Below, piece after piece: positions 6,821 to 21,902 of a stretch of 64,000 bases of DNA (positions are counted from its first letter, which is position 1; each line of letters opens with the position of its first letter). The notes under the pieces were generated by a model. That model made no database searches. It had not been told where the DNA came from and saw only the letters and a list, made by a program, of their open reading frames with translations. The translations under genes were made by a program, and so were the position numbers. Origin of the DNA: an uncultured Clostridium sp. (GTDB lineage Bacteria > Bacillota > Clostridia > Oscillospirales > CAG-272); assembly GCA_964427175.1 (NCBI GenBank), contig CAYRTP010000001.1:7836-71835 (forward strand), read 5' to 3'.

Positions 6821-7897
6821 TCAATCGAGAACCCGCCGAAAATACTCCTCCAGCTGGTCCTCCACGGAGGTCCTCTTGCTGGCCATGATATGGCCGTAAA
6901 CCTGGTCGATCATAGCCTCCGTCTCGTGACCGACGTAATCCGCGATATACTTTTTAGGCACGTTCAGTGCCAACATAACCGACACCGTGTAGTGTCTCAA
7001 ATCATGAAACCGATACTCCGGAAACTTGTGCTTCCGAATCAAATTATAAAACCGATTGCTGATCAGATCGGGTCGGATCGTAATATACCCACCCAGATCT
7101 GCGCACGCTTCTTTTTTCTTCGCCAGCGCGGCAGCGACGTAGGGAATCATGCGGATCACGCGGGTACCGGCGACCGTCTTGGTGGTCTTCTGCACGAACT
7201 CGCGCTCGTCATCCAGGACGAGTGCCTGGTCGATGGTGATGGTCCCCGCCTTGAAATCCACCCGCTCCCAGGTCAGAGCGGCGATCTCGGAGCGGCGCAT
7301 CCCGCAGCAGGCGGCCAGGATCACGGGAACCTCCAGCTCAGTGTCGCGTGTCAACTCAAATAGACGCTTGATGTCCTCCTCGGTCGGGATCACGATGGAG
7401 GGCTTTTGCTTTTGGGGGAGCGTGGTGTGCAACACAAAGTCAGGCCGATGCACCTGCATGACGGCCACCAGAAACCCGTGAATATTCCGCACCGTCTTGG
7501 GAGACAGACTCAAAGCCTCCTGATTGATGGCCACCTGCACCTGCTCGCGAGTGATGTCCTTGACCAGCATGGGACGGAGCTCACGCAGATAGTTGCGAAC
7601 GATCGAGCGATAAGAACGCACCGTAGAAGGCGATAGAATGGCACTCTTTGACTCGATGTATGTCTCCATTGCCACCTGGAGGGTCAAACGGTCCGCGGGC
7701 CGTACAGCGCGTTCTTGACGCTTCTCGGCCTTGAACTGCGCGGCGCGGAGGAGAACTTGGTTGTAGTCATAGTCGGTGATAGACTCATAGTGCCGTTTGC
7801 CATCCGCGTCGGTGTGCGAGTAGACCTGGGTGTTCCATGCCCCGCTTGGGAGCTGCTTGATCGCCGGAAGCCCGGCGGCCTTTTTCTTTTTAGCCAT
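6821..7897 (-). CDS. int: Tyrosine-type site-specific integrase
   Basis: 358 aa. The C-terminal catalytic region carries R...HDLRH...GH..Y (CGMRRSE, HDLRHYTVS, VGHETEAMIDQVYGH). It lies 68 nt inside attL. Confidence 0.9.
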   Translation of the reverse strand: MAKKKKAAGLPAIKQLPSGAWNTQVYSHTDADGKRHYESITDYDYNQVLLRAAQFKAEKRQERAVRPADRLTLQVAMETYIESKSAILSPSTVRSYRSIVRNYLRELRPMLVKDITREQVQVAINQEALSLSPKTVRNIHGFLVAVMQVHRPDFVLHTTLPQKQKPSIVIPTEEDIKRLFELTRDTELEVPVILAACCGMRRSEIAALTWERVDFKAGTITIDQALVLDDEREFVQKTTKTVAGTRVIRMIPYVAAALAKKKEACADLGGYITIRPDLISNRFYNLIRKHKFPEYRFHDLRHYTVSVMLALNVPKKYIADYVGHETEAMIDQVYGHIMASKRTSVEDQLEEYFRRVLD

Positions 7898-8382: not shown

Positions 8383-10767
8383 TTATGTTTGATTATCTAT
8401 TAAAGACCCAATAAGTTGATTGGGCCGGTTCGCCCAGTAATTGCAATCGCAAACAATAACAATTTCTTTTATCGCACGAGAAATAGCTGTGTTCAAAACA
8501 GTACGGCCAATAGCTATTTTACTATTGCAAAAAAACGGTTGACTATCATCTACGGTGCTAATTATTACGGTTGTCCATTCAAGGCCCTGAGCTGCATGAA
8601 CCGTTTGTATAAGAGAGGGTGAGACATGCTTGCTTAGTTCTTTTTGCAAAAGAGATCGCTGTTTTCTATAAGGGGTCAAAATAACATAATCTTTTGGCAT
8701 GTTGGCATTAAGATATTCTTTTATTGCAACTGCTTCGTCCACACTCATACGTGAAGATGAAGACAGAACCTGATGAGGTGCATTGATTACAGTGATTTTT
8801 GTTGGGATATTGGTGCCAGAAAAACCGTTATGATAAACATGTTTATCCAAAATGGCCGCTAAATTATCACCGAATCGAAATGTATTTTTCAAAAAGGAAA
8901 TAGCAACATCTGGGTTCTTGATATCTCCACAACAAGCGTAGGTTTGAAACATTTCGTCAACGGTACAAGTAAATGAATCTGCAAAATATAGCGATGATTG
9001 TGCCCATAGAAAAACTGGCATATAATCGTAGTTTCTTTGTATTAAGTTGTCGTTCATCTCGCAAACAGGAGGAAGTTGTTTGTGATCACCACAAAGCGTG
9101 ATCGGGATTCGCAACGAGAAAACAACACCTGCCTTTATCAAAGGTAACAATGCGGCCTCGTCAATAAATGCGTGGTCAACTTGAATGGGAATATTTTGTG
9201 GATCTATAGTTAAAAACAGTGTTTCATAGTGAGCAAACAAATAATCTATTGTGCAAGCGTAGATTTTTTTCTGACTTTGTTGTTGCTGAACCATTTTACC
9301 AATATCAGCCAATTGATTTTCGTAATATTGTATATCTTCTTCAATCTGTTTTCTGTTTCGCCCATTTTTCAATTCTTCTAATTTGGAATTGAGTGCAGCG
9401 GATGACATTGACAAGGAAACATAGGACCCCAAAAATTGAATGGAAACAGATTTTGCTTTTTCAAGGTATTCTGATGCACTAACCTGTAATGAGTTTATAA
9501 TGTCAGATAAGTGTTGTTCCTGTTGTGTCGCTTCAGAATATTCTTCGTTAATTTGCAGTATCAAAGTTTCAATTTGATCAACCTTAGTCTGCGCCTCCGA
9601 TACATCACGCAAATACTTACTTTTGTAATCTTTATCGAAGCGCATTTTAGTATGATGTTTCATAGAAATATTGCGTTGCTTTAATTTGCTCAATATAACG
9701 TTTTCGTTGCGTAACAAAATTTTGGATTCTGTCAAACGATTATTTATATCAGTAAGCCGAGGCTGCAATGCAGACAAATCGTCTTTATGCTTGGCGGCCT
9801 CTGCGAGTTGTTTTTCATAATGCTGTTTATATTCAAAAAAACTCTCGATTTTTTGTATCTGCAAATCAACTTCTGAACAAGACAGCAAAAACTCCTGACA
9901 GCTTTTTAATTTTTCTTCATACGATTTTCGCATTTTCTCCATTGCCGATCCGCAACACACCTGCGGATAATTACGTTCAAAAGGAATTGTGGGAATTCCA
10001 TACCGAATAACCTGAGTGACGGGTTCATTGTGATCTTCCATTACGCTCAGTATGGTTTGCAAAGAATTATCCAACGCATTATTAGTCGGAGCGACGATCA
10101 GAACCTTTTTGTCGTGACATATTAAATTTAAAACTGCGTGGGCTAATGTCCATGTTTTACCTGTGCCAGGAGGCCCCCAAATATAGCTGACAGGGGAGGA
10201 AAGAATAGAGCGAACCGCTTGTTTTTGAGGATCAGACAGGGAAGAAAGCAGAGATTCATTTTCAAGGCAATCAGAAAAAGGGTGAGGAGGAGAAGATATT
10301 TTATCTCCATAGGCATCATACCATGAGCCAACTTTGTCAATTAAAAATGTCATGTCAGAAATAAAGCTAACCCTTTCGGGATGTAAAGTTAAGTACGTTT
10401 GAAAAACATCCAGTAAGGTATTATCGTTTACAATAATTGTTAGTTGTCGCTCCTGATGCAAATAAGTTGAGAACGTAACAAATTCATGTTTGATATAATG
10501 CTTTGAAATATCATCATAATAAGATTCAGGCAACATATATTCACTGTCAAGGTTAATGCAAAGTGCTTCCGAATCAAACGAATGAAAAGAAGTGCGATGC
10601 TCCAAATGCAGAACAAAAGACCGAGGTAAATAGCCTTTGGTTATAGCTGTAACTCTTGTGACAATTTGACTCTTTCCATTTTGTTGACAATATTTCTTGT
10701 ATATATTACAGCTATCTATCGCTTCAAATACAAACTCTTGTACACTTGACATGACAAACACCTTCAC
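8383..10767 (-). CDS. SF1B (Upf1/DNA2-like, AAA_11/AAA_12-type) helicase with an unassigned N-terminal domain
   Basis: 794 aa. Motifs GPPGTGKT (aa 198-205), VAPTNNA, FIDEAA (aa 534-539), CGDHKQLPPV, TPYRKQ, TVHAAQGLEW and NTAISRA. AT-rich. GTG start at 10767 or ATG at 10752. Confidence 0.85.
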   Translation of the reverse strand: MKVFVMSSVQEFVFEAIDSCNIYKKYCQQNGKSQIVTRVTAITKGYLPRSFVLHLEHRTSFHSFDSEALCINLDSEYMLPESYYDDISKHYIKHEFVTFSTYLHQERQLTIIVNDNTLLDVFQTYLTLHPERVSFISDMTFLIDKVGSWYDAYGDKISSPPHPFSDCLENESLLSSLSDPQKQAVRSILSSPVSYIWGPPGTGKTWTLAHAVLNLICHDKKVLIVAPTNNALDNSLQTILSVMEDHNEPVTQVIRYGIPTIPFERNYPQVCCGSAMEKMRKSYEEKLKSCQEFLLSCSEVDLQIQKIESFFEYKQHYEKQLAEAAKHKDDLSALQPRLTDINNRLTESKILLRNENVILSKLKQRNISMKHHTKMRFDKDYKSKYLRDVSEAQTKVDQIETLILQINEEYSEATQQEQHLSDIINSLQVSASEYLEKAKSVSIQFLGSYVSLSMSSAALNSKLEELKNGRNRKQIEEDIQYYENQLADIGKMVQQQQSQKKIYACTIDYLFAHYETLFLTIDPQNIPIQVDHAFIDEAALLPLIKAGVVFSLRIPITLCGDHKQLPPVCEMNDNLIQRNYDYMPVFLWAQSSLYFADSFTCTVDEMFQTYACCGDIKNPDVAISFLKNTFRFGDNLAAILDKHVYHNGFSGTNIPTKITVINAPHQVLSSSSRMSVDEAVAIKEYLNANMPKDYVILTPYRKQRSLLQKELSKHVSPSLIQTVHAAQGLEWTTVIISTVDDSQPFFCNSKIAIGRTVLNTAISRAIKEIVIVCDCNYWANRPNQLIGSLIDNQT

Positions 10768-11037
10768 TTAATAATATTTTGGGGGACTACTTTTTTCCGC
10801 CTCCGCCTCGCACTCCTCCACCGGCTTATTGATAAACAAGTGGCTCCGCCGGATGTGTTCCAGCTCGTGCTTATAGGCGCGGCGTTGTTCCTCGAGGGAC
10901 AAATTCTCGTTGACGTAGATGTTGAAGTCACCGTTGTCATCCACTACGGTGACGGCGTTGACGCGGGCGGGGAGCGGTGCGAGGCGCAGGATCTCATGTT
11001 CCATCCCCGCCGTTCTTCTATGGGACAGAGAAAACAA
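10768..11037 (-). CDS. Small ImmA/IrrE-like HExxH metallopeptidase-motif protein
   Basis: 89 aa with the segment FNIYVNENLSLEEQRRAYKHELEHIRRSH. Native GC. TTG start at 11037 or ATG at 11004. Its stop abuts the helicase start. Confidence 0.6.
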   Translation of the reverse strand: MFSLSHRRTAGMEHEILRLAPLPARVNAVTVVDDNGDFNIYVNENLSLEEQRRAYKHELEHIRRSHLFINKPVEECEAEAEKSSPPKYY

Positions 11038-11042
11038 AAGAT

Positions 11043-12086
11043 TTAGCGTTCAAACGGATAATAATAATCAAACAATTTAAAATCAGAACTATCATATTCG
11101 TACATCCAAGCAAGATCATCGTTATCTGTTCCCCCTATTTCTTCCAAACGAGAAACGGAGAAAAAATCTTCAAACATTTCGACAAGCGCATCGCAGTAGT
11201 CAATTATCAGATTAAAAAGATGATCGACATAAAATCGTTGAGCCTCCGAAGGAGACTTAATTGAAACATTTTCCCTATTTGCATATATTTTCTCGTATTT
11301 AGTCGCCGAAAAGAAAACTGGGAGGAAAATCATATCAAAAAAATAGTTGCACCAAGTGGTTATAGTTTGCTCATCAAAATCAGTTCGGCCATAAGTAGTT
11401 GTTACCCATTCTTGAAAAGGCGGTGGATCTTCGTCAAAATATATTTCAAAAAAATATATATTTTGCATTAACTTAATATCTGAATTAAGGTTTGTCGCAT
11501 CTAAATTTTCATTAAATCCGCAAAGTAAAAACAATTTTTCCAATGATTTGTTTACAGACCTTGATACTTCTTGAAGTTGTCCATTGTATTTAAATGAGAT
11601 GTGAGTAGCTACACGCAACAGAAGGGCCGCTAAATTAACAGAAAAATGAGGAGAGACATCGAAACCGGGGAAATCTTCTAAAGTAATTTTTAAAATCTCA
11701 GTTGCAGTTTCATGCCATTTTTTTGTAATGCAAACAACATACTCAAGGTACGGGGCCTTTATACTATTAACATAATCGTCGAAGTTGTCTTTAACAAAAC
11801 GAGCTTTGGGAGGGTTAAATGAGCGATCATAAATAAACCGCTTGTTTCTTTCAATTTCGCACAACTCCTGCTCTTTCCTTTTTATTTCCTCTCTTAATTG
11901 AGCCTCAATCTCGCTGTGTCTCTTTTCCACTTCTGCAATTTCATCTCGCTTTTGCTGTTCTCGTGCTTCAGCAGCTTCGCGCTCCATACGTTCTTTTTCT
12001 GATACATAGTTGGAATACCAAATTGCAAAATAACATACTCCTAGAACAAGTGCTATACCAAAAACAATCTTCAAAAAAGTGTCCAT
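11043..12086 (-). CDS. Hypothetical membrane-anchored coiled-coil protein
   Basis: 347 aa. N-terminal TM helix (IVFGIALVLGVCYFAIW), an E/R/K-rich coiled coil, and an acidic/aromatic C-terminal domain. AT-rich. Confidence 0.7.
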   Translation of the reverse strand: MDTFLKIVFGIALVLGVCYFAIWYSNYVSEKERMEREAAEAREQQKRDEIAEVEKRHSEIEAQLREEIKRKEQELCEIERNKRFIYDRSFNPPKARFVKDNFDDYVNSIKAPYLEYVVCITKKWHETATEILKITLEDFPGFDVSPHFSVNLAALLLRVATHISFKYNGQLQEVSRSVNKSLEKLFLLCGFNENLDATNLNSDIKLMQNIYFFEIYFDEDPPPFQEWVTTTYGRTDFDEQTITTWCNYFFDMIFLPVFFSATKYEKIYANRENVSIKSPSEAQRFYVDHLFNLIIDYCDALVEMFEDFFSVSRLEEIGGTDNDDLAWMYEYDSSDFKLFDYYYPFER

Positions 12087-12119: not shown

Positions 12120-12752
12120 TCAAAAATTCTTGATCAACTTCCGCACCACTCCGACCACTCTCACCCGCATAATATCCGCCCCGGTGAACCGCATGGGCTT
12201 ATAGTACGGGTTGATGGACTGGAGCTCCAGCCAGCCGTCGCCGTACACCACGCGCTTAACCAGGCCCTCGTCGCCGTCCAGCAGGACTACGGCGATGGTG
12301 CCGCTGTCCACGGAGTCCTGCTTGTGGACCTGGATGATGTCGCCGTCCTCGATCTTGGGGTACATGCTGTCTCCCTTGACCTTGATGCAGATGGTTTCGG
12401 CGGCCTCGCCCGGGTCGGTGAAGTACAGGGGGGTATAATCCACGATGCAGTCGTCGGCGATGGCACCGAAGCCCGCGGACACGGTCTCAAAGACCGGGAT
12501 CTCGTAGACCCGGCTCATATCCAGGAATACTGCGTTCGGCTTGATGTCGGGCGTTTTTTTCTGCTCGTTTCCCAACAGGTAATCGACGGTTACTCCGAAG
12601 TAGTCGGCGATTTTTTGAAGAGTAGTTCCATTTGGAATGGTGCCGTTCTTCCATTTCGTAATGCTTCCGGTAGCGATGGACAGTTCTTTCACCACAGGGA
12701 GCGGTTTCGTGCCTTTCTCAAGACACAGGCTATAAAATCTTTCCCAAAACAT
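12120..12752 (-). CDS. CI/LexA-type phage repressor (XRE HTH + S24 peptidase)
   Basis: N-terminal HTH (KELSIATGSITKWKNG). C-terminal S24 motifs KGDSMYP and VVGVVRKL (Ser/Lys dyad). Confidence 0.9.
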   Translation of the reverse strand: MFWERFYSLCLEKGTKPLPVVKELSIATGSITKWKNGTIPNGTTLQKIADYFGVTVDYLLGNEQKKTPDIKPNAVFLDMSRVYEIPVFETVSAGFGAIADDCIVDYTPLYFTDPGEAAETICIKVKGDSMYPKIEDGDIIQVHKQDSVDSGTIAVVLLDGDEGLVKRVVYGDGWLELQSINPYYKPMRFTGADIMRVRVVGVVRKLIKNF

Positions 12753-12835
12753 AGTTACTCCTTTCTAAAATGCACTAAAATGAATATTTTGGTTTGTTTA
12801 AGATTTACAAAGTTCAAAAAAGTGAATAAAAACTA

Positions 12836-12864
12836 TTGACAATTCACCAAAGTGGAGTTATAAT
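12836..12864 (+). promoter_or_regulatory. Consensus early promoter divergent from the repressor
   Basis: TTGACA (12836-12841), 17 nt, TATAAT (12859-12864). The GTGAAT...ATTCAC dyad overlaps the -35 element. Confidence 0.7.
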
Positions 12865-13137
12865 AACACCATCACCCCCGCCGAGTGCCCCCGAGTAATC
12901 CGATGGTACTTAACCACCGCAGCAAGCCGATGGTTCATACGCCATCGTATCGCACCACTCCGGCGAGAAGGCCGCCCCACAGTTCCGTCTGTGCCGGGCT
13001 GCCGAAAATCAGCCGTCCGTGGCAGGGGGTGAGACTCTTGCTCCCGCCCCGTTCAGGGATGTCCTCCTGGAAGATTGCCCCCGCCCCCGGCGGGGGAATC
13101 TTCGGGGCGGGAGGGTTCTAAAAACACGGAGAGACAA
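12865..13137 (+). promoter_or_regulatory. About 270-nt GC-rich structured 5' leader (non-coding)
   Basis: No credible ORF. Several hairpins (CGATGG..CCATCG, CACAG..CTGTG, GGCTG..CAGCC). Contains copy A of the conserved element. Confidence 0.45.
13061..13130 (+). ncRNA. Conserved RNA hairpin element, copy A
   Basis: TCCTGGA, then hairpin (GATTgCCCCCGCC/GGCGGGGGAATC), then TTCGGGGCGGGAGGGT..ACACGGA. The 24-nt block 13093-13116 is identical to 14013-14036. Confidence 0.5.
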
Positions 13138-13461
13138 ATGGAGCTTGAAAGAATCACCTATCATGGTGAAGAATACCGCGTACAGCCGATCAATGTTCTT
13201 ACGGGCTACCCGGAGAGATACGTAAAAGGGAAGACCGACGAGGAGAATCAAAAATTCTTCGATTCCATCGAAACGGCACTCGCAGAGTTCATGTACTTGC
13301 ACCTGCTCGAAGCCGGAGCGGTAGAAAGAACCGACACGGTAGATGAGCGCGGGGGAACGAACATTGAGTGCGACGTGCTGGTGCTGGTCAAGTGCCGGGA
13401 TTCGGAGGGAGCGGCTCCCTCGGATCCAAAACCGAATCCTCCTGATACTCATGATACATGA
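13138..13461 (+). CDS. Hypothetical 107-aa protein
   Basis: ATG at 13138 after GGAGAG. The first two thirds look protein-like. The 3' end overlaps the convergent ORF 13388-13636. Confidence 0.45.
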   Translation: MELERITYHGEEYRVQPINVLTGYPERYVKGKTDEENQKFFDSIETALAEFMYLHLLEAGAVERTDTVDERGGTNIECDVLVLVKCRDSEGAAPSDPKPNPPDTHDT

Positions 13462-13636
13462 GATACTCAATCAGATACTTTCGGCATTGCTTGCACGGAG
13501 CGGAATACGCGAAAACGTCGCAGCCCTGCGGATCGGGCAAGGGGCCTCTGGGGGTCTCAAAGAGACAGACCAAATGGGACTTGACCTCACGGTAGTTCTC
13601 ACGCGGGCAACGAACTCGGACTTTGATCTGATTCAT
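13388..13636 (-). CDS. Hypothetical Cys-containing 82-aa protein
   Basis: Its start overlaps the stop of the upstream XRE gene (ATGA), which suggests translational coupling. Cys pattern CP..C..C..CKQC. Confidence 0.55.
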   Translation of the reverse strand: MNQIKVRVRCPRENYREVKSHLVCLFETPRGPLPDPQGCDVFAYSAPCKQCRKYLIEYLMYHEYQEDSVLDPREPLPPNPGT

Positions 13637-13893
13637 GAGGATTCACCCCCTCTCTTATGAGCCTCGGGATCGTCAGTCCGTCCCAGCAGATAGTCCACCG
13701 AGCAGTCGAGGTAATCGGCGATGCGGGCGAGGCTGTCGAAGGCGAGAGACTTCCCGTGGTAAAGAGCGGACATGGTATTACTACCAAGATTCAATTCGGC
13801 AAGCATAGTGCCGAGCACGACGTTCTTTTTCTTGGCGAACTCTTTTATAGTAATCGCCAAATCGTGCGAAGTGTACAGTTTTTCAGTTGTCAT
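13633..13893 (-). CDS. XRE-family HTH regulator (second repressor-like protein)
   Basis: 86 aa. HTH GTMLAELNLGSNTMSALYHG and the typical C-terminal tail DCSVDYLLGRTD. Confidence 0.85.
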   Translation of the reverse strand: MTTEKLYTSHDLAITIKEFAKKKNVVLGTMLAELNLGSNTMSALYHGKSLAFDSLARIADYLDCSVDYLLGRTDDPEAHKRGGESS

Positions 13894-13958
13894 TTTGTAA
13901 ATACCTCCAAAATTCGCAAAATAGTGCGAAATCTATTGACAATCGCACAAAAGTGCGA
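13854..13958. promoter_or_regulatory. Three operator-like dyads TCGCnn-N4-GTGCGA
   Basis: 13854-13869 TCGCCAAATCGTGCGA; 13914-13929 TCGCAAAATAGTGCGA; 13943-13958 TCGCACAAAAGTGCGA. The last is a perfect dyad filling the spacer of the 13936 promoter. Confidence 0.6.
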
Positions 13959-13964
13959 TATAAT
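13936..13964 (+). promoter_or_regulatory. Consensus early promoter divergent from the XRE gene
   Basis: TTGACA (13936-13941), 17 nt, TATAAT (13959-13964). Confidence 0.7.
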
Positions 13965-13973
13965 GAGCACATC

Positions 13974-14052
13974 GTTCTCCTGGATTCCCCCGAGACCCGC
14001 TGCAGAGGGCTCGGGGAATCTTCGGGGCGGGAGGGTGTAACATACACGGACT
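13974..14052 (+). ncRNA. Conserved RNA hairpin element, copy B
   Basis: TCCTGGA, then a longer hairpin (GATTCCCCcGAGaCCC/GGGCTCGGGGAATC), then TTCGGGGCGGGAGGGT..ACACGGA. It starts about 10 nt after the predicted transcription start. Confidence 0.5.
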
Positions 14053-14088
14053 ATAATATAGGAAGGGAAATGGGAATGGAGCAAGTTA

Positions 14089-14538
14089 TTAAAAGTCGAA
14101 GGCGACCTCCCCGGCGAGGTAGTCCCGTCGCAGTTCGGTTAGATAAGGGGGTAGAGCTGACGCGGTTTGTTCACAGAGTTTCTCCAGTTTTATCAACACT
14201 GGATTCAGAAGCCGCAAAGCGTCTCCCTCCAGATCACAATCGTTTACCCCGAAATCCATCGCGCAATATAGACAAAATATTTCCTCCGGGGTCAGCGGCT
14301 CCGGTATTAAGACCGAAAAGAAGACCTTACGGGTCGCCGAGATTAACAGGTCGGTCACGTAGTCCTCGTCAAGCCAGGACGGAAACGGACGAGAAAAAGG
14401 ACGGTAATACGGATCAGTCGTCCAAATCGGAATTTTTTGTTCGAGGTCTAAAAAGTTCCGGCACGCCTCGCGGACAAGCTGCGCTTCAAATTGAGAAAAG
14501 AAACAGAAAGCGGGTTGGGCAGATGGGGTGGCATTCAT
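14089..14538 (-). CDS. Hypothetical 149-aa protein, leftward gene embedded in the rightward early region
   Basis: ATG at 14538 after TTGGAGG. Protein-like composition and its own consensus promoter. GC is lower than the phage average. Confidence 0.65.
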   Translation of the reverse strand: MNATPSAQPAFCFFSQFEAQLVREACRNFLDLEQKIPIWTTDPYYRPFSRPFPSWLDEDYVTDLLISATRKVFFSVLIPEPLTPEEIFCLYCAMDFGVNDCDLEGDALRLLNPVLIKLEKLCEQTASALPPYLTELRRDYLAGEVAFDF

Positions 14539-14612
14539 AAAAACCTCCAATCGTGTAAAGAACACGGTACAAGCGTCAAAAATTGACCGAAAACGGTTCG
14601 GTCTCCAAAAAA

Positions 14613-14641
14613 ATTATATCATAAAAACCTTGTATAGTCAA
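14613..14641 (-). promoter_or_regulatory. Consensus promoter for the 149-aa gene
   Basis: Minus strand: TTGACT (14641-14636), 17 nt, TATAAT (14618-14613). Confidence 0.65.
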
Positions 14642-14657
14642 GGGGAAGGAGTCAAAA

Positions 14658-15038
14658 ATGGAAAAAAACACATTCAAGGAGCGGTGTGAGGTACGCATGG
14701 CAGCTCTTGGCCTGGGGCAGAAGGAGCTGGGAGAACTGGTGGGCAAACCCCAGCAGAGGATCAACGAGGCCATCCGCGGAGACAAGACCCCCGCCGCCTC
14801 GTCCCTGCGGGTCGCTATCGACCAGGCATTGAGCAGAAAGGTGGACGAGAAGCGCGTCAAAATGCTCGACGATGTCCTCGACGTGCTGGAGCAGGACGAA
14901 GCCAAGGTCTGGAACCCGGCGGAAGTATCGCTGATCCTGCCCGAGGACCTGCTCTACGTCGTCACCGAGCGGGGGATTCCCGTCGGTACCTGGAACCCCG
15001 TGACCAAGGTCTATCGGGCGTTTGAGGAGGTGTGGTGA
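14658..15038 (+). CDS. XRE-family HTH protein (Cro-like early regulator)
   Basis: 126 aa. HTH GQKELGELVGKPQQRINEAIRG. RBS GGGGAAGGAG. Confidence 0.75.
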   Translation: MEKNTFKERCEVRMAALGLGQKELGELVGKPQQRINEAIRGDKTPAASSLRVAIDQALSRKVDEKRVKMLDDVLDVLEQDEAKVWNPAEVSLILPEDLLYVVTERGIPVGTWNPVTKVYRAFEEVW

Positions 15039-15039
15039 C

Positions 15040-15261
15040 ATGAAAAAAGGCGACTACGTCCGCGTGAGCGGTATTGAGTACGGAAGCTACGACGGCGAGA
15101 TCGGCCGCGTCTACGGCGACATTGCCCCCGTCAGGGGCAAGCCCGCCTGGGCTGTGGACATGGGAGACGTGGTGATCGCGGCTCTGGAGGAGGATATGAC
15201 CGTGGTGGACAACCCCAAGTCCCGCAAGCTCCCCCGCAAGGACAAGGAGGTGCGCGCATGA
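15040..15261 (+). CDS. Hypothetical protein
   Basis: 73 aa. The ATG overlaps the upstream stop (TGACATG). Confidence 0.55.
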   Translation: MKKGDYVRVSGIEYGSYDGEIGRVYGDIAPVRGKPAWAVDMGDVVIAALEEDMTVVDNPKSRKLPRKDKEVRA

Positions 15262-15464
15262 AGGGCCTGCTTGAGCTGCTGACCGTCCCCGTGGCGGTGC
15301 TCGCGCTGTGCGTGATCCTGGCCGTGGTGGGCGGGATCGAGAACGGAACCATCTCATACCCCGCCGCCCTGCTGATCACAGTCACCATGGTGGGCATCGA
15401 GGTCGCGGCCATGCGGGTATTTGCAAAAAAGGAGGTACAGGAGGATGGCAAGCAAGACGAGTAA
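15258..15464 (+). CDS. Small membrane protein (2 TM)
   Basis: 68 aa with two hydrophobic helices. ATGA overlap with the upstream gene. Confidence 0.55.
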   Translation: MKGLLELLTVPVAVLALCVILAVVGGIENGTISYPAALLITVTMVGIEVAAMRVFAKKEVQEDGKQDE

Positions 15465-15705
15465 AAAAAGTAAGCTGAATCCGTCGGATGTGTTCGCGCT
15501 CAACCTGAAGGGGCTGATGGCCATCAAGGGCGTATCCGCCGGGGAGATGCACGAGTACATGGGAATCAGTTCAACGACCTTCTATAAGCGGCTGAACCGG
15601 CCCTACGAGTTCACCATGTCCGACGTAGAATCCGCCGCCAAGAAACTGGGCGTATCCGCATCGGCCATGCTGGCGGGTGTGATGGAGGTGAGCGCGAGTG
15701 CCTGA
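15445..15705 (+). CDS. Putative HTH DNA-binding protein
   Basis: ATG at 15445 after AGGAGGTACAGGAGG. Segment VSAGEMHEYMGISSTTFYKRL. Confidence 0.55.
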   Translation: MASKTSKKSKLNPSDVFALNLKGLMAIKGVSAGEMHEYMGISSTTFYKRLNRPYEFTMSDVESAAKKLGVSASAMLAGVMEVSASA

Positions 15706-15925
15706 GAAGGTCAAGAAGCCCTGGCGCGTCGTCCGCTACGATGCGCCGCGGGATCGATACATCATCGACTATTACGACAAAAACGGTGGCAAGTGTGCCA
15801 CCTATTCCGCAAGCCGGGACGACCGACGGGGGATGTTCTTCCTCCGCTTGGAGGTCAGATATCCTTACAGAGAGGTCCCCGGGCGGAAGGCGGTGTACTT
15901 TGATGAGTGCACCTGGGAGATATAA
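15698..15925 (+). CDS. Hypothetical protein
   Basis: 75 aa. The GTG start overlaps the upstream stop. Confidence 0.45.
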   Translation: MPEKVKKPWRVVRYDAPRDRYIIDYYDKNGGKCATYSASRDDRRGMFFLRLEVRYPYREVPGRKAVYFDECTWEI

Positions 15926-15966
15926 CAACTTTATAACAAATTTATAACATAAAGGAGCAAGAGAAA

Positions 15967-17853
15967 ATGGAAAACAAGTACATGACGCTTGAGGAGATCG
16001 CCATGGAGATGGAGGACACCCTCACCGAGCCTGCCGATAAGCGGGCTTTGGTCTACATCAAGATCGAGGATCTGTACCCCCACCCCGACAACCCCCGCAA
16101 GGATCTCGGGGATATTACCGAGATGGCCGAGAGCATCAAGGCAAACGGAGTCTTGCAGAACCTGACCGTGGTGCCTCACATCGACAGCACCCGGGAGTAC
16201 GAGGAGATTCTGGATCGGACCGACTTCTCGCCGGCCTTTAAGAACTACAGCATCAACCACGCCTTTGACGGCGGCTACACCGTCATCATTGGCCACCGCC
16301 GACTGGCCGCGGCCAAGCTGGCGGGGCTCCGCGAGCTCCCTTGTGTGGTCACCTACATGGACTACCGCGCCCAGCGGGCCACCATGTTGACCGAGAACCT
16401 CCAGCGGGCCGATCTGACTCCCTACGAGCAGGCCACCGAGTTCCGCCAGCTCACCATGGACCTGGGTATGAGCGTCTCTGCCATCTCGGAGCAGACGGGC
16501 TTCTCCGAGACCACGGTGCGCCGTCGGCTCAAGCTGGGGGCTCTGGATGGGGAAGTATTGCGCCAGGAGACCGCCAAGGCCGCCGAGCGGGGCCGTCAGC
16601 TCTCTATGGCCGACCTGGAGGCGGTGGCGGAGATCGAGGACCCGGAGGACCGCACCAAGGTGCTCAAAGAGATCGGGACAAATAACTTCGCCATGAGGCT
16701 CAAGGCGGTTATGGACAATCAGGAGAGGGAGAAGAAGATCCGCGCCTGGAAGGAGCTGCTTGAGGCGCGTGGGCTGTCGGAGATCCCGCAAAGCATGATG
16801 TGGGGCACCGGGTGGAAGCCCATCCACCATTTCCTCATCGAGAACATCGATCCCTCTGCCGAGAAGGCGGATAATCTGACCGCCTCTGTCAAGAAAGGCG
16901 AGAAGTGGGGCTTCGCGTATTACTACGGCTGGATCTACATCAAGAAGTGGAGAGACGAGCCCCCCACGGAGACTGTGCCCGCCGTACAGGCGGCTCCGTC
17001 GGTCACCGAGGAGGCCGCGGACAAGGCCGGGGGCGAGGAGCCCGAACAGATGACGGTGGAGGACAAGCCGAAGGGCCCCTCCGAGGGGGAGCTGCGGCAG
17101 GTGTCCTGCACCCTCCTGGAGCAGGCCTTTGCCAACGCCTACGATCTGAGGCGGACCTTCTTCGACGGCATGAGCGAGCTCACGGCCGGGAGGTGCGTGC
17201 AGAGTATGGTGGAGATGATGCTAGACCTGCGAGACAACAGCAATTGCTGTCTGGAATTGTCCGAGGAGGAGGTTGAGATCATCCACCGTCGACTGGATCA
17301 CAAGAAGCCTTTGGTTGCGCTGCTGACCCTGCTGTATTTCCAGCTATGGGACAGCAGCAGGACCTGCTGCAACGATAAATACGGGAGCCGCGCCGGGCAG
17401 TTCAACGAGGAGAATGATGACCGAGCCATGCTGGAAAAGCTGTACGCCGCCCTCACCTCGATGGGCTACCGCATGAGCGACGACGAGAAGGCTCTGCTGA
17501 ACGGGACCCATCGCTACTACTACCACGAGGGCTGGACTCCGCCGGAGGAGGAGGAGAGGCTTGATGGCGAGGCAGAGGCCGAGGAGGCGCACGTCAAGAC
17601 CCGATTCGAGGTGTATCAGGACATGACCGACGAGGAGTTAGATCGGGAGCTGTACGGGTTTGACAACAAAGAGAAAGAGCTTCGGGATCAGATCCGATTC
17701 CAGGAGACTCCCGAAGACGTGGCACGGACCACGGCTCCCTTTGTCTGCGTGAACGAGGATGTTGGTGAAAACAAGCGATGCAAGGCCTATGACAATGACT
17801 GCGAGCGGTGCATCGCTGCCTGGCTTAACGAGCCCTACAAGAAGGAGGCCTGA
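15967..17853 (+). CDS. ParB/Srx N-terminal-domain protein (628 aa)
   Basis: Motifs PHPDNPRK and VIIGHRRLAAAKLAG plus an HTH (SAISEQTGFSETTVRRRL). Long unassigned C-terminus. Confidence 0.8.
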   Translation: MENKYMTLEEIAMEMEDTLTEPADKRALVYIKIEDLYPHPDNPRKDLGDITEMAESIKANGVLQNLTVVPHIDSTREYEEILDRTDFSPAFKNYSINHAFDGGYTVIIGHRRLAAAKLAGLRELPCVVTYMDYRAQRATMLTENLQRADLTPYEQATEFRQLTMDLGMSVSAISEQTGFSETTVRRRLKLGALDGEVLRQETAKAAERGRQLSMADLEAVAEIEDPEDRTKVLKEIGTNNFAMRLKAVMDNQEREKKIRAWKELLEARGLSEIPQSMMWGTGWKPIHHFLIENIDPSAEKADNLTASVKKGEKWGFAYYYGWIYIKKWRDEPPTETVPAVQAAPSVTEEAADKAGGEEPEQMTVEDKPKGPSEGELRQVSCTLLEQAFANAYDLRRTFFDGMSELTAGRCVQSMVEMMLDLRDNSNCCLELSEEEVEIIHRRLDHKKPLVALLTLLYFQLWDSSRTCCNDKYGSRAGQFNEENDDRAMLEKLYAALTSMGYRMSDDEKALLNGTHRYYYHEGWTPPEEEERLDGEAEAEEAHVKTRFEVYQDMTDEELDRELYGFDNKEKELRDQIRFQETPEDVARTTAPFVCVNEDVGENKRCKAYDNDCERCIAAWLNEPYKKEA

Positions 17854-17855
17854 CC

Positions 17856-18566
17856 ATGTGCGAGTTTTGCGACAAAAAGGGCCTCCCCTGCCTGCTGTGC
17901 GGGCGGGCCTGCATGACATATAAATTCGATCGGTCCCGGTGCGGCGGTTGCGGCTCAACCAACCGCCCGCCCAGGGAGTGGCCGATCTTTACCTACTGCC
18001 CCTACTGCGGGCGGAATCTGAACGAGGACAAAAATCAAGAGCAAGAGGAGAACAAGGAAATGAGCAAGTACGTATGGACGGCGGAGGCCGACGAGACCAT
18101 CCGCCGCATGATCGAGGAGGGGGCGCGGGCGGTGGACATCTGCGACGTGCTGGGGTGCAAGGGTGAGCCGCTCAAGAATCACCTGACGGTTTTGAGAAAG
18201 CGGGATCCCGATTTCCCGCGGATCTACAGCGGCTCGGCCGCCTGCGCGGATGACTCTGCCGAGGCGATTACTGCGCCCGTGGTAGATATGTCCCCGGTGG
18301 GACAGGAGGCCGAGGCGGCCCCCGAGCTCCCGGCGGACAAGCCCGAGGAAATCACCCCCGCGCCTACGAGTCAGGAGAAGCTCTTGGAGCACCTGGTCAA
18401 GATGGTGGAGGACCGCGAGATCGAGCTGAAGGTGGCCAACACCGAGCTGGACCGCCTGCGGGAGCAGGTGGAGGTCTACGCCGGGCTGATCGACATCAAG
18501 CAGGCCAAGATCGACGAGCAGGAGCGGGCGATCCTGGCGATGGCGTTGGAGATCTATGGAGGGTGA
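17856..18566 (+). CDS. Zinc-ribbon protein with C-terminal coiled coil
   Basis: CxxC pairs (CEFC, CLLC, CGGC, CPYC). Confidence 0.55.
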   Translation: MCEFCDKKGLPCLLCGRACMTYKFDRSRCGGCGSTNRPPREWPIFTYCPYCGRNLNEDKNQEQEENKEMSKYVWTAEADETIRRMIEEGARAVDICDVLGCKGEPLKNHLTVLRKRDPDFPRIYSGSAACADDSAEAITAPVVDMSPVGQEAEAAPELPADKPEEITPAPTSQEKLLEHLVKMVEDREIELKVANTELDRLREQVEVYAGLIDIKQAKIDEQERAILAMALEIYGG

Positions 18567-18570
18567 TCGT

Positions 18571-18777
18571 ATGGCAAAAGCAAAGAACCCCCTCCCCGCC
18601 CTCTCCCCCTGCCCCCACTGCGGGGGCGGGGCGGAGTATCGGTCGTTTACCAGCCGAGGATGGCTGTATAAGGTTACGACACACTACGTCTCCTGCGCCG
18701 AGTGCTACTGCCGCACCGGCTTTGAGGACTCCCCCGAGGAGGCCGCGGAGAAGTGGAACAGGAGGGTGAGCAAATGA
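18571..18777 (+). CDS. lar: Lar-family restriction-alleviation-like protein
   Basis: LSPCPHCGGGAEY...VSCAECYCRTG...EEAAEKWNRR matches the Lar pattern (CPFCGG...C..C...A...WNRR). Confidence 0.7.
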   Translation: MAKAKNPLPALSPCPHCGGGAEYRSFTSRGWLYKVTTHYVSCAECYCRTGFEDSPEEAAEKWNRRVSK

Positions 18778-19208
18778 AAGCCAACTATGAAATCAAGGTC
18801 AACCCCCTCTCGGTCGGGCTGTTTCCCTCCGAGAAAATGACCGACCGGGAAAAGCGGGCGTGGATTCTGACCGCGCCCTACCGTGAGCAGGAATATGAGG
18901 CCCTGGCGGATGCCATCGTGATCTCGGTCCTGTACGCGCTGGCGACCCAGGAAAACGACCCCCACGGAGCGGTGCGCCTGCGGCGAGACTGGGAGGCTAT
19001 GGTCAAAACCCGCGCCAATGCTCGCAGGGAGCTCCGCAAGCAGGACGGGGAGTATCAGATAGCTATTGCCGGCAAGAACGTGGAGGACTACTATATGCGT
19101 GAGGAGCTCCGCAAGCGGGGAGCTGACGTGCTGGAGTGGGAGCGGCACGTGGACATGGATGACGACGGGGAGATCACGTTTACAGACGCAGGGAGGTGGA
19201 GGGAGTGA
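18774..19208 (+). CDS. Hypothetical protein
   Basis: 144 aa. ATGA overlap with the lar-like gene. Confidence 0.55.
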   Translation: MKANYEIKVNPLSVGLFPSEKMTDREKRAWILTAPYREQEYEALADAIVISVLYALATQENDPHGAVRLRRDWEAMVKTRANARRELRKQDGEYQIAIAGKNVEDYYMREELRKRGADVLEWERHVDMDDDGEITFTDAGRWRE

Positions 19209-19219
19209 AAAAGTCCCCA

Positions 19220-19345
19220 ATGACCCTTGAACAAGCCATTGAGCTGCTCCGCGAAAAGTACGAAAGAGCAAAGAATCTGAAGTACGTCATAAACCCGCTT
19301 GCCTGGGCTTTGTATCAGGTTTGGAAGGAGGCCGACAACCAATGA
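19220..19345 (+). CDS. Hypothetical 41-aa protein (not in the ORF track)
   Basis: MTLEQAIELLREKYERAKNLKYVINPLAWALYQVWKEADNQ. Its stop overlaps the next start (ATGA at 19342). Confidence 0.4.
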   Translation: MTLEQAIELLREKYERAKNLKYVINPLAWALYQVWKEADNQ

Positions 19346-19935
19346 AACTCAAACAAATCGAAAAAATCTGCAAAACCTCCAGCCGCATCGTCCTCTATGA
19401 CGAGGTCAGAGAGATGGATGTGGACGAGCTTCCCGGGGAGGGAGAGCTGCCCCGCCAATGGATGAGCGACGGTGTGGCCGCCTACCCGCTGGACGGGCTC
19501 CCCTATCTGGACGAGGAGGCGGTCTGCGCCATCTTCGACGTGGACGCGAAAAAGCGGGACAAGATGACCATCTCCCACAAGATGACTCTGCCTGAGAGTG
19601 TGGACTTCTCAGACCTCCACGCCGGGGACTCGCCTCTGGAGCCCCTGAACTTCAAGATGGCGTTGGGGAGCGACGAGCTGTGTCTGTTCCGGGACAAGGA
19701 CGGGGCTCTGATGGTCATCAAGGAGGTCTACCGCAAGCCCTTCGACGCTTGGAAGGAGTGCGAGTGCTACAAGCGGATCGACAGCGGCGGCAAGCCCTAC
19801 GTGGCGGTGATCCACGGCTGTGTGCTTCGCGGGGTGATCTACCCCTACAAGATCGGGGACACCCTGGTGGAGACCCTGGGCGCGGTCTACAATGCCGCCG
19901 GGGTGGCGGCGGAGCAGGAGCAGATGCATATTTAA
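19342..19935 (+). CDS. Hypothetical protein
   Basis: 197 aa. RBS GGAAGGAGG. Confidence 0.6.
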   Translation: MKLKQIEKICKTSSRIVLYDEVREMDVDELPGEGELPRQWMSDGVAAYPLDGLPYLDEEAVCAIFDVDAKKRDKMTISHKMTLPESVDFSDLHAGDSPLEPLNFKMALGSDELCLFRDKDGALMVIKEVYRKPFDAWKECECYKRIDSGGKPYVAVIHGCVLRGVIYPYKIGDTLVETLGAVYNAAGVAAEQEQMHI

Positions 19936-20135
19936 CCCCATCGGCTCCCCCTCGGGGGAGCCACCCACTACATTTTACTATATAAGGGACCCGGGAGCGG
20001 TCGGGCAATAGCCTCGGGGCGGTTCAACTCCGCCCGCCCTTACCAAACGGAATCACAGCGTTTGTTTATAAGGTTCGCTACCTTATATAGACCTTGTATT
20101 CCACTATTAAATTTAGAGCCACGAGGAGCGAGAGA

Positions 20136-20738
20136 ATGAAAGCAGAAAAATTGGAGCGACTCAAGTACCTGGATGAGCTCTCCTATCGGGGATTCCTGAC
20201 GGACTCCGAGGAGGCAGAGCGGTCCGCACTCAGAGCACAGAAGCAAGAGGAGGAGCGGTTGAAGGCCGCCAAGCAAGAACAGAAGACACGGAACACCGTC
20301 TCGGGTGAGCAAAGCTCGTCGGAGGTCTCGCAAGAGGTCTCCAGGGGGTACAGGCCCACCTTCCGGGAGGCCATGTCGCAGGCGGCCAAGCAGATCAACC
20401 TGGATGGCTTCCTACAACGGGGGGATGACGGTTGGGTACAGGGCCCCGACTATCAGATGGCCCGCACCCTCTGTATGGTGATGGCCGAGATCTACATGGC
20501 CGCCCCCCGCTACGTCTTCTACGTGGGCGGGATCGCCATGACGGCAGAGCAGGCACAGGCGGTGTACGCGGAGCTTACTTCAGAGCACGTGGAGACGGTG
20601 ATCCGCAAGATCAGACAGAGCAAGGGCAAGACCGTCAAGTACCAGCGGCCCTACCTGCGGACCATGCTCTATAACATGGTCTTTGAATACGAGGCGCAAA
20701 CACAGGCGGGCATGGACTCCGCGCTGTGGGAAACATAA
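20136..20738 (+). CDS. Hypothetical protein (possible replication organiser)
   Basis: 200 aa. N-terminal coiled coil. The C-terminal YLRTMLYN segment is faintly DnaD-like. Weak evidence. Confidence 0.5.
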   Translation: MKAEKLERLKYLDELSYRGFLTDSEEAERSALRAQKQEEERLKAAKQEQKTRNTVSGEQSSSEVSQEVSRGYRPTFREAMSQAAKQINLDGFLQRGDDGWVQGPDYQMARTLCMVMAEIYMAAPRYVFYVGGIAMTAEQAQAVYAELTSEHVETVIRKIRQSKGKTVKYQRPYLRTMLYNMVFEYEAQTQAGMDSALWET

Positions 20739-20750
20739 AGGAGCAAGCAC

Positions 20751-21653
20751 ATGAGCCGAGATATCCGATGGGCCCGAGAGACGGGCTACAATATGGGCCA
20801 GCCGTACTGCGATACGGTTCTTTTCCCCGTGCGCGGACCCAAAAAGGGCCGTCGGACTCTTGGCAAGCCTACTACCCCCGCCCAGGAGGAAATCAACGAG
20901 AAGCACGCCAAGATGCACTTTGCCCGCATGGCGAATGCCAACTTCCAGGAGGAGCGGGACGTGGTGGTGCATCTGACCTTTGACAAGCACCACCTGCCCG
21001 CCACCCGCAAAGACTGCAAGCATGAGATCGACAAGTTCCTGCGCCGCGTCAAGCGGGCTTGGGTTCGGCGCGGCTTTGAGCCGGATCTGCGCTATCTCTA
21101 CGTGATCGAGGGAGAGGACGGCAAACGGCTCCACTCCCACATGCTCATGACGGGCGGGCTGACCGTATCCGAGATCCGTGAACTGTGGGGTAAGGCGGAT
21201 ATCGTCAACGTGGATCCGCTTCAGGCCGGGCAGAAGGGCTATGAGGCTTTGGCCAATTACCTGACCAAGCAGGGCAAGCTGGCCGACGGGGAGCACCGTT
21301 GGTACGGCTCCCGGAACCTGGTCAAGCCCGACTACGAGGAGCGGAACGCCCACATCCCCATGTCCGACGTGGAGGAGCTGGGCGAGTACATACAGAACGT
21401 CATGGATGCCGGGAAAGGGGATATTCCCACCGCCGAGCGGTACGCGCCCATCGAGGAGATGTACCCCGGCTACTTTTGCGCCGAGGCCGAGGCCAAGTAC
21501 ATCGAGCAGTTCCGGGACTGGATCATCCACGTCAAGCTCTACCGCAAGGACACCCGGGCGGGTGTGATCGAGGCCAAGCGGCGGCGGGATGAGGAGCGAG
21601 CCATCGAGGCGAAGAAGAAGCTGGTGGCGGAGTTTGAGAGGAGCGTGAGATAA
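20751..21653 (+). CDS. Possible HUH-type replication initiator
   Basis: 300 aa. Candidate HUH motif LHSHMLM and downstream Tyr motif ANYLTKQ. The assignment is tentative. Confidence 0.5.
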   Translation: MSRDIRWARETGYNMGQPYCDTVLFPVRGPKKGRRTLGKPTTPAQEEINEKHAKMHFARMANANFQEERDVVVHLTFDKHHLPATRKDCKHEIDKFLRRVKRAWVRRGFEPDLRYLYVIEGEDGKRLHSHMLMTGGLTVSEIRELWGKADIVNVDPLQAGQKGYEALANYLTKQGKLADGEHRWYGSRNLVKPDYEERNAHIPMSDVEELGEYIQNVMDAGKGDIPTAERYAPIEEMYPGYFCAEAEAKYIEQFRDWIIHVKLYRKDTRAGVIEAKRRRDEERAIEAKKKLVAEFERSVR

Positions 21654-21902
21654 TTGGCCAAAGGCGGAGGATATGACAGAGGGGATGCCAGCGTGGCCTG
21701 CCCTTATTACATAAGCTCAACTCAAAAGGAGATCACCTGCGCGGGCGGGCTGGATCCAAACGGGAAGGTTGAAAACAAATTCAGAACTGAAAAGAAAAAG
21801 CGGGAGTACAAAGACAGGTACTGTCGCTCCTGTTATCATGCCTGCTCGCTTTGCAAGGTAAACGATAGGGCGCAGGACTTCGAGCGTCCTCCGTCCGCAT
21901 AG
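21654..21902 (+). CDS. Hypothetical Cys-rich protein
   Basis: 82 aa with a TTG start. CPYY..C...CRSCYHACSLC. Confidence 0.4.
   Translation: MAKGGGYDRGDASVACPYYISSTQKEITCAGGLDPNGKVENKFRTEKKKREYKDRYCRSCYHACSLCKVNDRAQDFERPPSA

Follow-up and report, generated by a model that had tools for sequence, protein, structure and literature searches.

The contig CAYRTP010000001.1 of an uncultured Clostridium sp. carries a prophage region in which two copies of a hairpin-forming sequence follow two early promoters. We analysed a stretch of 64,000 nucleotides (nt) of this contig, hereafter the window, and the question raised by the locus is what role is served by the repeated hairpin, which is present as copy A behind promoter P1 and as copy B behind promoter P2. 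A reading made from the letters of the DNA without database searches (the sequence-only reading) had described a covarying RNA hairpin and had likened the pair to the antitermination signals nutL/nutR of phage lambda and putL/putR of phage HK022. We find that this hairpin, named H1 here, belongs to a larger module that also includes a second hairpin, H2, and a translation start site. The H2 hairpin, an upstream complement of the copy A tail and a conserved domain of ~170 nt before copy A (Domain 1) had no place in that reading. The comparisons given below indicate that the H1-H2 module is a real structured element at the RNA level, and an undescribed one. At a probability of roughly 0.45, we take it to be a cis-acting leader for mRNA stability or translation, an effect that we infer.

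Two copies of one repeat

A repeat search returns a direct repeat of 38 nt (13093-13130 and 14013-14050) that is 87% identical, and its first part, 13093-13116 and 14013-14036, is 24 nt without a difference. The recurrence of an exact 24-mer inside 1 kb is far beyond chance expectation. There is no third copy in the 64-kb window, either by pattern or by covariance model. The sequence TCCTGGA is common to copies A and B, and ACACGGA is located 7 nt past the tail of each. The identical 24-nt block, these two short sequences and the perfect consensus of both promoters had all been stated before and check out. Transcription is predicted to start at ~12871 for P1 and at ~13971 for P2. Copy A thus begins ~190 nt 3′ of the predicted P1 start and copy B begins 4-12 nt 3′ of the predicted P2 start, close to the earlier estimates of ~200 and ~10 nt.

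Folding confirms the proposal that both copies form hairpins. The hairpin of copy A has 15 base pairs (bp), one bulged G and a 3-nt loop, and that of copy B has 9+3+3 bp and an 8-nt loop. The whole top is replaced between the two, and hence this pair of sequences alone provides no evidence of covariation.

Four tracts of three or more G, with loops of at most 8 nt, run across the 3′ arm of H1 and the linker that follows it in 7 of 8 modules (13092-13115 and 14007-14031 of the + strand in the window). Copies A and B are two of nine sites of the G-quadruplex type in the window, counting both strands. A G-quadruplex was noted as a reading and was not adopted because the tracts double as hairpin arm and linker.

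Relatives of the element

Relatives were reached through neighbouring proteins, namely the 107-amino-acid (aa) and 82-aa proteins encoded between the two copies, by examining the contigs of their homologues. There are only two homologues of the 107-aa protein and seven of the 82-aa protein among 5.8 billion proteins. Seven loci are informative (L043, L044, L148, L149, which is the same as L151, L150, L152 and L154), and the module is present in L043, L148, L149/L151, L150, L152 and L154. The element is rare. Exact-pattern scans of viral, genome and metagenome collections with 18-24-mers of the tail, the tail plus ACACGG, the AU box described below and the start of the P1 leader yielded no true homologue, and the matches that did appear (L042, L132-L146 and L147) were set aside as chance matches inside coding DNA. 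BLAST of 12760-14140 against 50,697 phage genomes returned promoter-like AT-rich stretches only. The motif is also absent from 37 viral loci with relatives of the cI-like repressor and from 80 viral loci, as well as L125-L129, with relatives of the small helix-turn-helix (HTH) repressor.

The sequence-only reading had proposed scans with Rfam and with a covariance model. There is no match to Rfam 15 over 12,800-14,100 at E<=10, and the homologous leaders in the seven loci are likewise without a match, where the sole matches are chance ones to operators or terminators. No described family is therefore matched. Models R1 (module) and R2 (Domain 1), run over 634 kb of sequence, recovered their training members and two weak H1-like matches only.

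Architecture and covariation of the module

The module is composed, from 5′ to 3′, of H1, a linker, H2, an AU box (UAUAAUAUA), a ribosome-binding site and a start codon. H1 is a long hairpin whose base is rich in A/U and which has a C4-5:G4-5 clamp below a top that varies. The linker, which corresponds to the tail of the sequence-only reading, is A-rich and G-rich and has the consensus GGGG-AAAAWUC-GGGC followed by purines. H2 is a short hairpin of 4-6 bp, and its loop is A-rich. The AU box has the consensus GGAYUAUAAUAUA and the ribosome-binding site, a strong one, is of the GGAAGGGAAG type. In seven of the eight full modules, there is constant spacing from H2 through 3-4 nt, UAUAAUAUA and the ribosome-binding site to the start codon. 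The conserved bases are located in the linkers, and tops and loops vary among relatives: the loops of H1 (3-10 nt) are mutually unrelated, and those of H2 (ACA, AAA, AAAAG, GAGGG and AAU) are not conserved. Model R1 scores 110 bits for copy B (13969-14079) and 54 bits for copy A (13059-13152).

The secondary structure model is well supported by covariation. In the MAFFT alignment A7, 83.8% of cells are paired, compared with 36-52% when partners are slid. The covariation score is 0.427, a value reached by none of 500 shuffles, and slid controls give at most 0.169. Both sides have changed in four of five pairs of H2 and in four of 13 pairs of H1. The changed pairs of H2 are UA/CG, GC/AU/UA and UA/CG/AU/UG, and its stem occurs as GUGUA/UACAC, GCAUA/UGUGC, GCAC(C)/(G)GUGC and GUUA/UAAC. 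A model-based alignment, A8, agrees with A7 on covariation. The covariation that had been read from copies A and B therefore holds through compensatory changes in orthologues, not through the comparison of A with B.

Among the same relatives there are insertions and deletions whose lengths are not divisible by three, and one insertion of 11 nt, in keeping with the earlier proposal of structure rather than coding. A peptide reading of the segment (..NLRGGRV) was considered and rejected. Its sole in-frame ATG (13963-13965) shares bases with the 3′ end of the P2 -10 box, precedes the predicted P2 start and is missing from L043, and the frame is broken by insertions and deletions in the relatives.

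Copy B and its start site

Copy B is a complete module (13969-14079) located a few bases past the predicted P2 start. If transcription starts as predicted, its closing pairs lie ~8 nt and H1 ~12 nt from the start. H1 and H2 are separated by a linker of 13-15 nt, and the ribosome-binding site is unpaired in the predicted fold. The upper hairpin of copy B is identical in L152, where the module is directly 5′ of a gene resembling that for the 107-aa protein. Compared with L043, H1 of copy B shows one G-C to A-U exchange, and a bulged A is replaced by a U.G pair. The TATAAT within the AU box was considered as the -10 box of a promoter and was rejected, as it lacks both a -35 box and a TG extension, and a transcript starting there would have no leader ahead of the ATG.

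The start site of copy B opens a 157-codon open reading frame (ORF) that is probably not a real gene, judging from its codon usage. The codon log-likelihood per codon is -0.41 for this ORF versus -0.06 for the 149-aa gene on the minus strand, and gene callers pick the minus strand. Ribosomes may translate this shadow frame over the antisense stretch from the copy B start site.

The next real gene on the + strand past copy B encodes a 126-aa protein (14658), and its start region is as in the first early gene of L148 and L154. There is no detectable + strand promoter between 14060 and 16500, and therefore the early operon, from the 126-aa gene on, must be read from P2 or P1. The path to 14658 includes ~470 nt that are antisense to the 149-aa gene and runs against a strong minus-strand promoter at 14641-14613 (TTGACT-17-TATAAT with a TG extension). 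A scan for terminators of the intrinsic type, which does not cover Rho-dependent sites, found no intrinsic-terminator-like site on the + strand in 13,000-21,900, and two sites farther along are weak.

Past the minus-strand promoter, the 5′ leader of its gene contains a hairpin that, with its U run, resembles a terminator (14585-14641, minus strand). The same arrangement of promoter and hairpin is found 5′ of 82-aa-type genes in L154 (1243-1361) and L148 (2383-2500). The hairpin in the 14585-14641 leader may be an attenuator.

Copy A and Domain 1

Copy A has neither H2 nor the AU box after its tail. The tail GGGGCGGGAG (13104-13113) and CTCCCGCCCC (13041-13050) are exactly complementary, and a 10-bp helix between them closes a Y-shaped structure. 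The duplex of flank and tail has a predicted energy of -25.8 kcal/mol (z -4.6 versus shuffles), and the fold of 13036-13137 reaches -55.9 kcal/mol (z -3.6). The tail had been described as identical in the two copies, which it is. In copy A, however, it is not single-stranded, as it is paired with 13041-13050.

Domain 1 is predicted to form a three-way junction. Its helices (numbered independently of the promoters) are P1, a long-range closing helix; P2, in which GAGKG/CMCUC closes a variable hairpin; and P3-P4, formed by CGGCGA...UC(A)GCCG. There are further representatives at L044 1280-1441 and, on the minus strand, at L148 3606-3462, L149 3282-3128, L150 838-689 and L152 4072-3957. Their length ranges from ~115 to 170 nt, and the joining segments CUCCGGCGAGAAGGC and GCCGAUAAUCAGCCGUCCGAGGCGG are invariant. 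In the six-locus alignment A9, 89.6% of cells are paired in the RNAalifold structure versus 32-61% with slid partners, and seven pairs have changed on both sides. Model R2 matches the window with 108 bits, the minimum free energy (MFE) of the whole P1 leader has a z of -4.4, and Domain 1 has no match in Rfam. In the predicted fold, the closing helix of Domain 1 takes in the 5′ end of the P1 transcript. L044 and the window agree exactly in the P1 -10 box and over the first 20 nt of the transcript. Pyrimidine tracts (CUCUUG, CUUUCUUG and CCUUCUUUGAG) are found 5′ of H1 in the leaders of the Domain 1 type.

Mosaic junctions

The H1 loops are recurrent mosaic junctions, and from these we conclude that the two copies probably arose by module shuffling. 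Between the window and L043, identity at copy B is 48% in the 5′ arm of H1 and 84-91% from the loop (~13997) to the ribosome-binding site. In L152, a 94-nt repeat (3373-3466/3747-3840) and a 79-nt repeat (3088-3166/3467-3545) abut inside an H1 loop, and their junction yields a hybrid H1 hairpin that stands alone behind a P2-type promoter. There are also duplicated start-region segments, comprising the ribosome-binding site and first codons, in L149 (2438-2482/2992-3036) and L148 (3000-3021/3284-3305). Those of L149 bracket a 106/84-aa cassette, and those of L148 likewise surround inserted genes. These duplications flank small inserted genes in the way that copies A and B flank the window cassette (the 107-aa, 82-aa and HTH genes and P2).

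Early-region modules have probably been shuffled in these phages with junctions in or beside the leader. Copy B would then be the intact module of the P2 unit. Copy A would be a form that became joined to the 3′ side of Domain 1, with H2 and the AU box lost and the tail held in a helix.

The prophage setting

The prophage region includes an integrase gene (6821-7897), several HTH genes, ParB-like and replication genes, and terminase from 22118 on. The features of the immunity region are listed in Table 1. The cassette bracketed by copies A and B (13138-13893) comprises the 107-aa gene, the 82-aa gene and the HTH repressor gene. The convergent 107-aa/82-aa pair is kept in L043, L044 and L148-L154, with an overlap of ~74 nt in every relative. 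There is no family match for either protein, and searches of PDB sequences gave no significant result. AlphaFold models of the two families are too poor for structure search, with a predicted local distance difference test (pLDDT) score of 54 for the 82-aa family and 48 for the 107-aa family. The 82-aa protein has four invariant cysteines (C10, C39, C48 and C51).

Table 1. Coordinates of features around copies A and B, as positions in the window.
Feature	Position	Strand	Remarks
cI-like S24 repressor gene	12120-12752	-	Peptidase_S24 and HTH; phrog_4
Early promoter P1, TTGACA-17-TATAAT	12836-12864	+	12/12 match; divergent from cI-like S24 repressor gene
Domain 1, predicted three-way-junction RNA, ~170 nt	12866-13035	+	5′ end of P1 transcript; precedes copy A
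C-rich strand CTCCCGCCCC	13041-13050	+	Pairs perfectly with copy A tail 13104-13113 (MFE and centroid structures)
Small hairpin, CAGGG/CCUG-type, 5 bp	13054-13069	+	Within the closed junction of copy A; includes TCCTGGA and CCTCC of the sequence-only reading
Copy A H1, GAAGAUU(G)CCCCCGCC / GGCGGGGGAAUCUUC	13070-13103	+	15 bp, CCC loop; aligned to family in A7 and A8
Copy A G-rich tail GGGGCGGGAGGGT	13104-13116	+	3′ strand of closing helix
107-aa first gene	13138-13461	+	Ribosome-binding site GGAGAG and ATG 13138 (13128-13140); gene also called in public contigs
82-aa four-cysteine gene	13388-13636	-	Convergent to 107-aa gene; 74-nt overlap
HTH repressor gene	13633-13893	-	Part of cassette between the copies
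P2 palindromic operators, TTCGCA-N6-TGCGAA; TCGCAC-N4-GTGCGA	13913-13930; 13943-13958	+	P2 region 13913-13964
Early promoter P2, TTGACA-17-TATAAT	13936-13964	+	12/12 match; prophage immunity region
Copy B H1, GGAUUCCCC(C)GAG(A)CCC / GGGCUCGGGGAAUCU, loop GCUGCAGA	13982-14021	+	
Copy B linker/tail UCGGGGCGGGAGGGU	14022-14036	+	P2 transcript has no upstream complement
Copy B H2, GUGUA-ACA-UACAC	14035-14047	+	Predicted in copy B of window and of L043; includes ACAC of ACACGGA
Copy B AU box UAUAAUAUA, ribosome-binding site GGAAGGGAA, ATG 14070 (second ATG 14076)	14052-14072	+	
157-codon ORF	14070-14540	+	Opened by copy B start site; wholly antisense to 149-aa gene 14089-14538 (-)

The promoter/operator type of P2 is also found in L125, L126, L129, L046 and L152. 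In operators of this type, TCGCAC-N4-GTGCGA is located between the -35 and -10 boxes and a second palindromic site is upstream. Their sequences vary in step with the recognition region of the small HTH repressor encoded next to them, which belongs to a large family (1316 proteins at E<=1e-10).

A low-GC island (8383-12086, minus strand; 36-45% versus ~58%) is located between the integrase and the cI-like gene. Its genes encode a superfamily 1 (SF1) helicase (AAA_11/AAA_12; PADLOC MkoA-like, 8e-30), an 89-aa ORF with a HELEH motif and a 347-aa protein without a family, and the island may be defence cargo.

A proposed cis-acting leader and its rivals

The favoured reading starts from what the comparisons show, namely the structure, its conservation and covariation, the coupling to a start site and the mosaic junctions. 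Copies A and B would be paralogous forms of a structured 5′-leader module that heads early transcripts in a small set of temperate phages with Clostridia-type hosts from the gut. The stable hairpins would shield the 5′ region from 5′-end-dependent decay and hold upstream structure off the start site. The single-stranded AU box and the ribosome-binding site just 3′ of H2 would then permit efficient ribosome loading, and the polypurine GGGAGGG of the window may contribute the effect of a ribosome-binding stabiliser. A cis-acting leader is favoured because the module is coupled at a fixed distance to a start site in most members (7 of 8), because unrelated promoter-proximal hairpins are found behind other P2-type promoters, and because the 5′ end of the P1 transcript is held in a helix. 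The unrelated hairpins, located by eye soon after the predicted P2-type start, are in L125, L129, L045 and L046.

Several observations weigh against a cis-acting leader. Copy A, which has neither H2 nor the AU box, lies ~190 nt into its transcript and therefore could have no role as a 5′-end shield unless the leader is processed. Two H1 hairpins of L152 have no start site after them at all. The polypurine similar to a Shine-Dalgarno (SD) sequence is not conserved family-wide: it is GGGAGGG in both window copies and GAGAGGG in L043, and it is weak or absent in L148, L152 and L154. The strong conservation of the single-stranded linker GGGGAAAAUUCGGGC suggests that a specific partner recognises it, and a plain stabiliser would require no such partner. 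There are also few independent events behind the covariation, with about three types of H1 top and four types of H2 among eight sequences. G.U pairs (7) are only slightly more numerous than A.C mismatches (4), and thus the acting strand is not proven: the alignments support the structure of H1 and H2 well, and the strand less so.

Processive antitermination or anti-pausing of the put or nut type, in which the nascent hairpins would bind and modify RNA polymerase, is the reading proposed from sequence alone, and we consider it unlikely. On this account, transcription from P1 and P2 would continue past the convergent antisense cassettes into an early operon that lacks its own promoter. In favour of such an activity, no + strand promoter is detectable in 14060-16500, and the early operon depends on a long read-through past an antisense gene and a minus-strand promoter, an arrangement shared by L148 and L154. 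Moreover, leaders of L152 that end in H1 run directly into antisense HTH genes with no start site. The layout resembles that of HK022 put, with two similar elements of ~70 nt, one right behind its promoter and the other ~200-270 nt from the start (PMC9378689). Each HK022 element has two stem-loops and requires no dedicated protein (PMC9378689), and copy B has H1 and H2. No member of the N, Q, LoaP or NusG-like families is found among the 26 ORFs scanned with Pfam and/or PHROGs, as the sequence-only reading had anticipated, which would suit a factor-independent element. The ORF at 14070 has an arginine-rich start; it runs antisense to a real gene, and its codon score is that of non-coding sequence. 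The pyrimidine tracts 5′ of H1 may bear a loose resemblance to boxA. An RNA that contacts polymerase would be expected to keep its hairpin tops and loops. In this family, tops and loops are free to vary and hybrids between hairpins are tolerated, whereas specific internal features of put contact the β′ zinc-binding domain (PMC9378689). The + strand offers no intrinsic-terminator-like site to be overcome in 13,000-21,900 and only weak ones next, copy A lacks H2, there is no conserved loop of the boxB type, and most members are coupled to a start site. Of the antitermination proposal, the put-like layout (PMC9378689) is supported, and nothing tested is specific to antitermination. In the most developed form of this reading, Firmicute phages would use the module, alone or with Domain 1, as a put-like processivity RNA that needs no factor and carries polymerase past antisense cassettes and head-on promoters, a claim we regard as rather unlikely.

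The conserved three-way junction of Domain 1, with its invariant joining segments, also invites comparison with a regulatory switch, which we judge to be quite improbable. Domain 1 would be a sensor of a ligand or protein and H1-linker-H2 the expression platform, with the pyrimidine tract 5′ of H1 pairing either with the G-rich linker, leaving the start free, or with the ribosome-binding site, hiding it. The second pairing is present in the MFE folds of L148, L149, L150, L154 and L044, and the alternative flank-to-tail pairing is very strong in copy A of the window. However, the latter is significant in that copy only. The duplex between flank and start site has p values against shuffles of 0.000 for copy B of L043, 0.023 for L152, 0.033 for L149 and 0.053 for L148. 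Pairing of this anti-SD tract with the ribosome-binding site is suggested in four to five members and is statistically weak. These pairings join C runs with G runs, which pair easily by chance. In addition, modules of the B type do without Domain 1, there is no terminator and no clear set of conserved mutually exclusive helices, and Rfam matches no known riboswitch. It is very unlikely that the copies are mainly a feature of the DNA, such as a recombination hot spot or module linker, and are scars of cassette insertion without an RNA function of their own. They are indeed direct repeats around a 920-bp cassette, three independent comparisons place mosaic junctions inside H1 loops, L149 and L148 have similar duplicated leader or start-site segments around inserted genes, and covariation alone cannot separate RNA hairpins from DNA hairpins. 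Yet H2, which is outside any junction, shows the cleanest covariation, the hairpins still pair where their flanks have diverged to 48% identity, and every copy has one orientation relative to a strong promoter; the slight excess of G.U pairs over A.C mismatches points the same way. A trans-acting or antisense RNA circuit, resembling CI RNA of phage P4 or c4 RNA of phage P1, seems highly improbable. The identical tails would be targeted by the C-rich 13041-13051, which is perfectly complementary to both over 11 nt, or the RNA from P2 and copy B, which includes no credible gene, would act as antisense to 14089-14538. The complementarity extends over those 11 nt only and is satisfied in cis within copy A, its C-rich partner is not conserved among relatives, and no terminator delimits a small RNA past copy B.

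Significance and comparison with known systems

The prophage immunity regions compared here provide two undescribed covarying RNA motifs, the H1-H2 module and Domain 1 of ~170 nt, and an example of a hairpin loop that serves as a repeated junction for module exchange. If the module is a cis-acting leader, it would be a new compact phage leader cassette for stable and well-translated early messages. This would be of modest interest, and the cassette might be used as an expression part for Clostridia-type hosts. If it acts in antitermination, a put-like RNA that modifies polymerase would be found for the first time outside HK022-type coliphages, and this would explain how an early operon lying behind antisense cassettes is expressed.

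Among known systems, the putL/putR elements of HK022 are similar in that two sequence-related structured elements of ~70 nt are located past both early promoters, one proximal and the other a few hundred nt on (PMC9378689). The farther HK022 element is ~270 nt from the transcript start (PMC9378689). They differ in that copy A consists of one main hairpin and a closing helix rather than two stems, the hairpin tops lack conservation, a translation start is coupled to the module, intrinsic-terminator-like sites are absent from the path, and the host is of the Firmicute type and not Escherichia coli. No sequence relation between put and the window was seen, and no comparison was aimed at one. The nutL/nutR sites of lambda share the position in an early leader, the hairpin and, in some members, a pyrimidine tract just upstream, but the window has neither a conserved short stem and loop like boxB nor an arginine-rich protein like N. 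As in the P4 CI and P1 c4 RNAs, short repeats in early leaders are complementary to another leader segment. Here, this complementarity covers 11 nt and is lineage-specific, and there is no sign of a processed small RNA.

Stabilisers of mRNA 5′ regions in Gram-positive bacteria include 5′-terminal stem-loops (the ermC and aprE leaders), the SP82 polypurine stabiliser and the cryIIIA STAB-SD. In contrast to these, the polypurine is not found family-wide, copy A is internal, and the linker and H2 have no counterpart. A likeness may be seen in the stable hairpin near the predicted 5′ end of a strongly transcribed phage early RNA, in the SD-like GGGAGGG that the window copies carry at some distance 5′ of the real start, and in the strong AU-rich start region. 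The H1-H2 module and Domain 1 are thus undescribed RNA motifs within the known class of structured phage early leaders.

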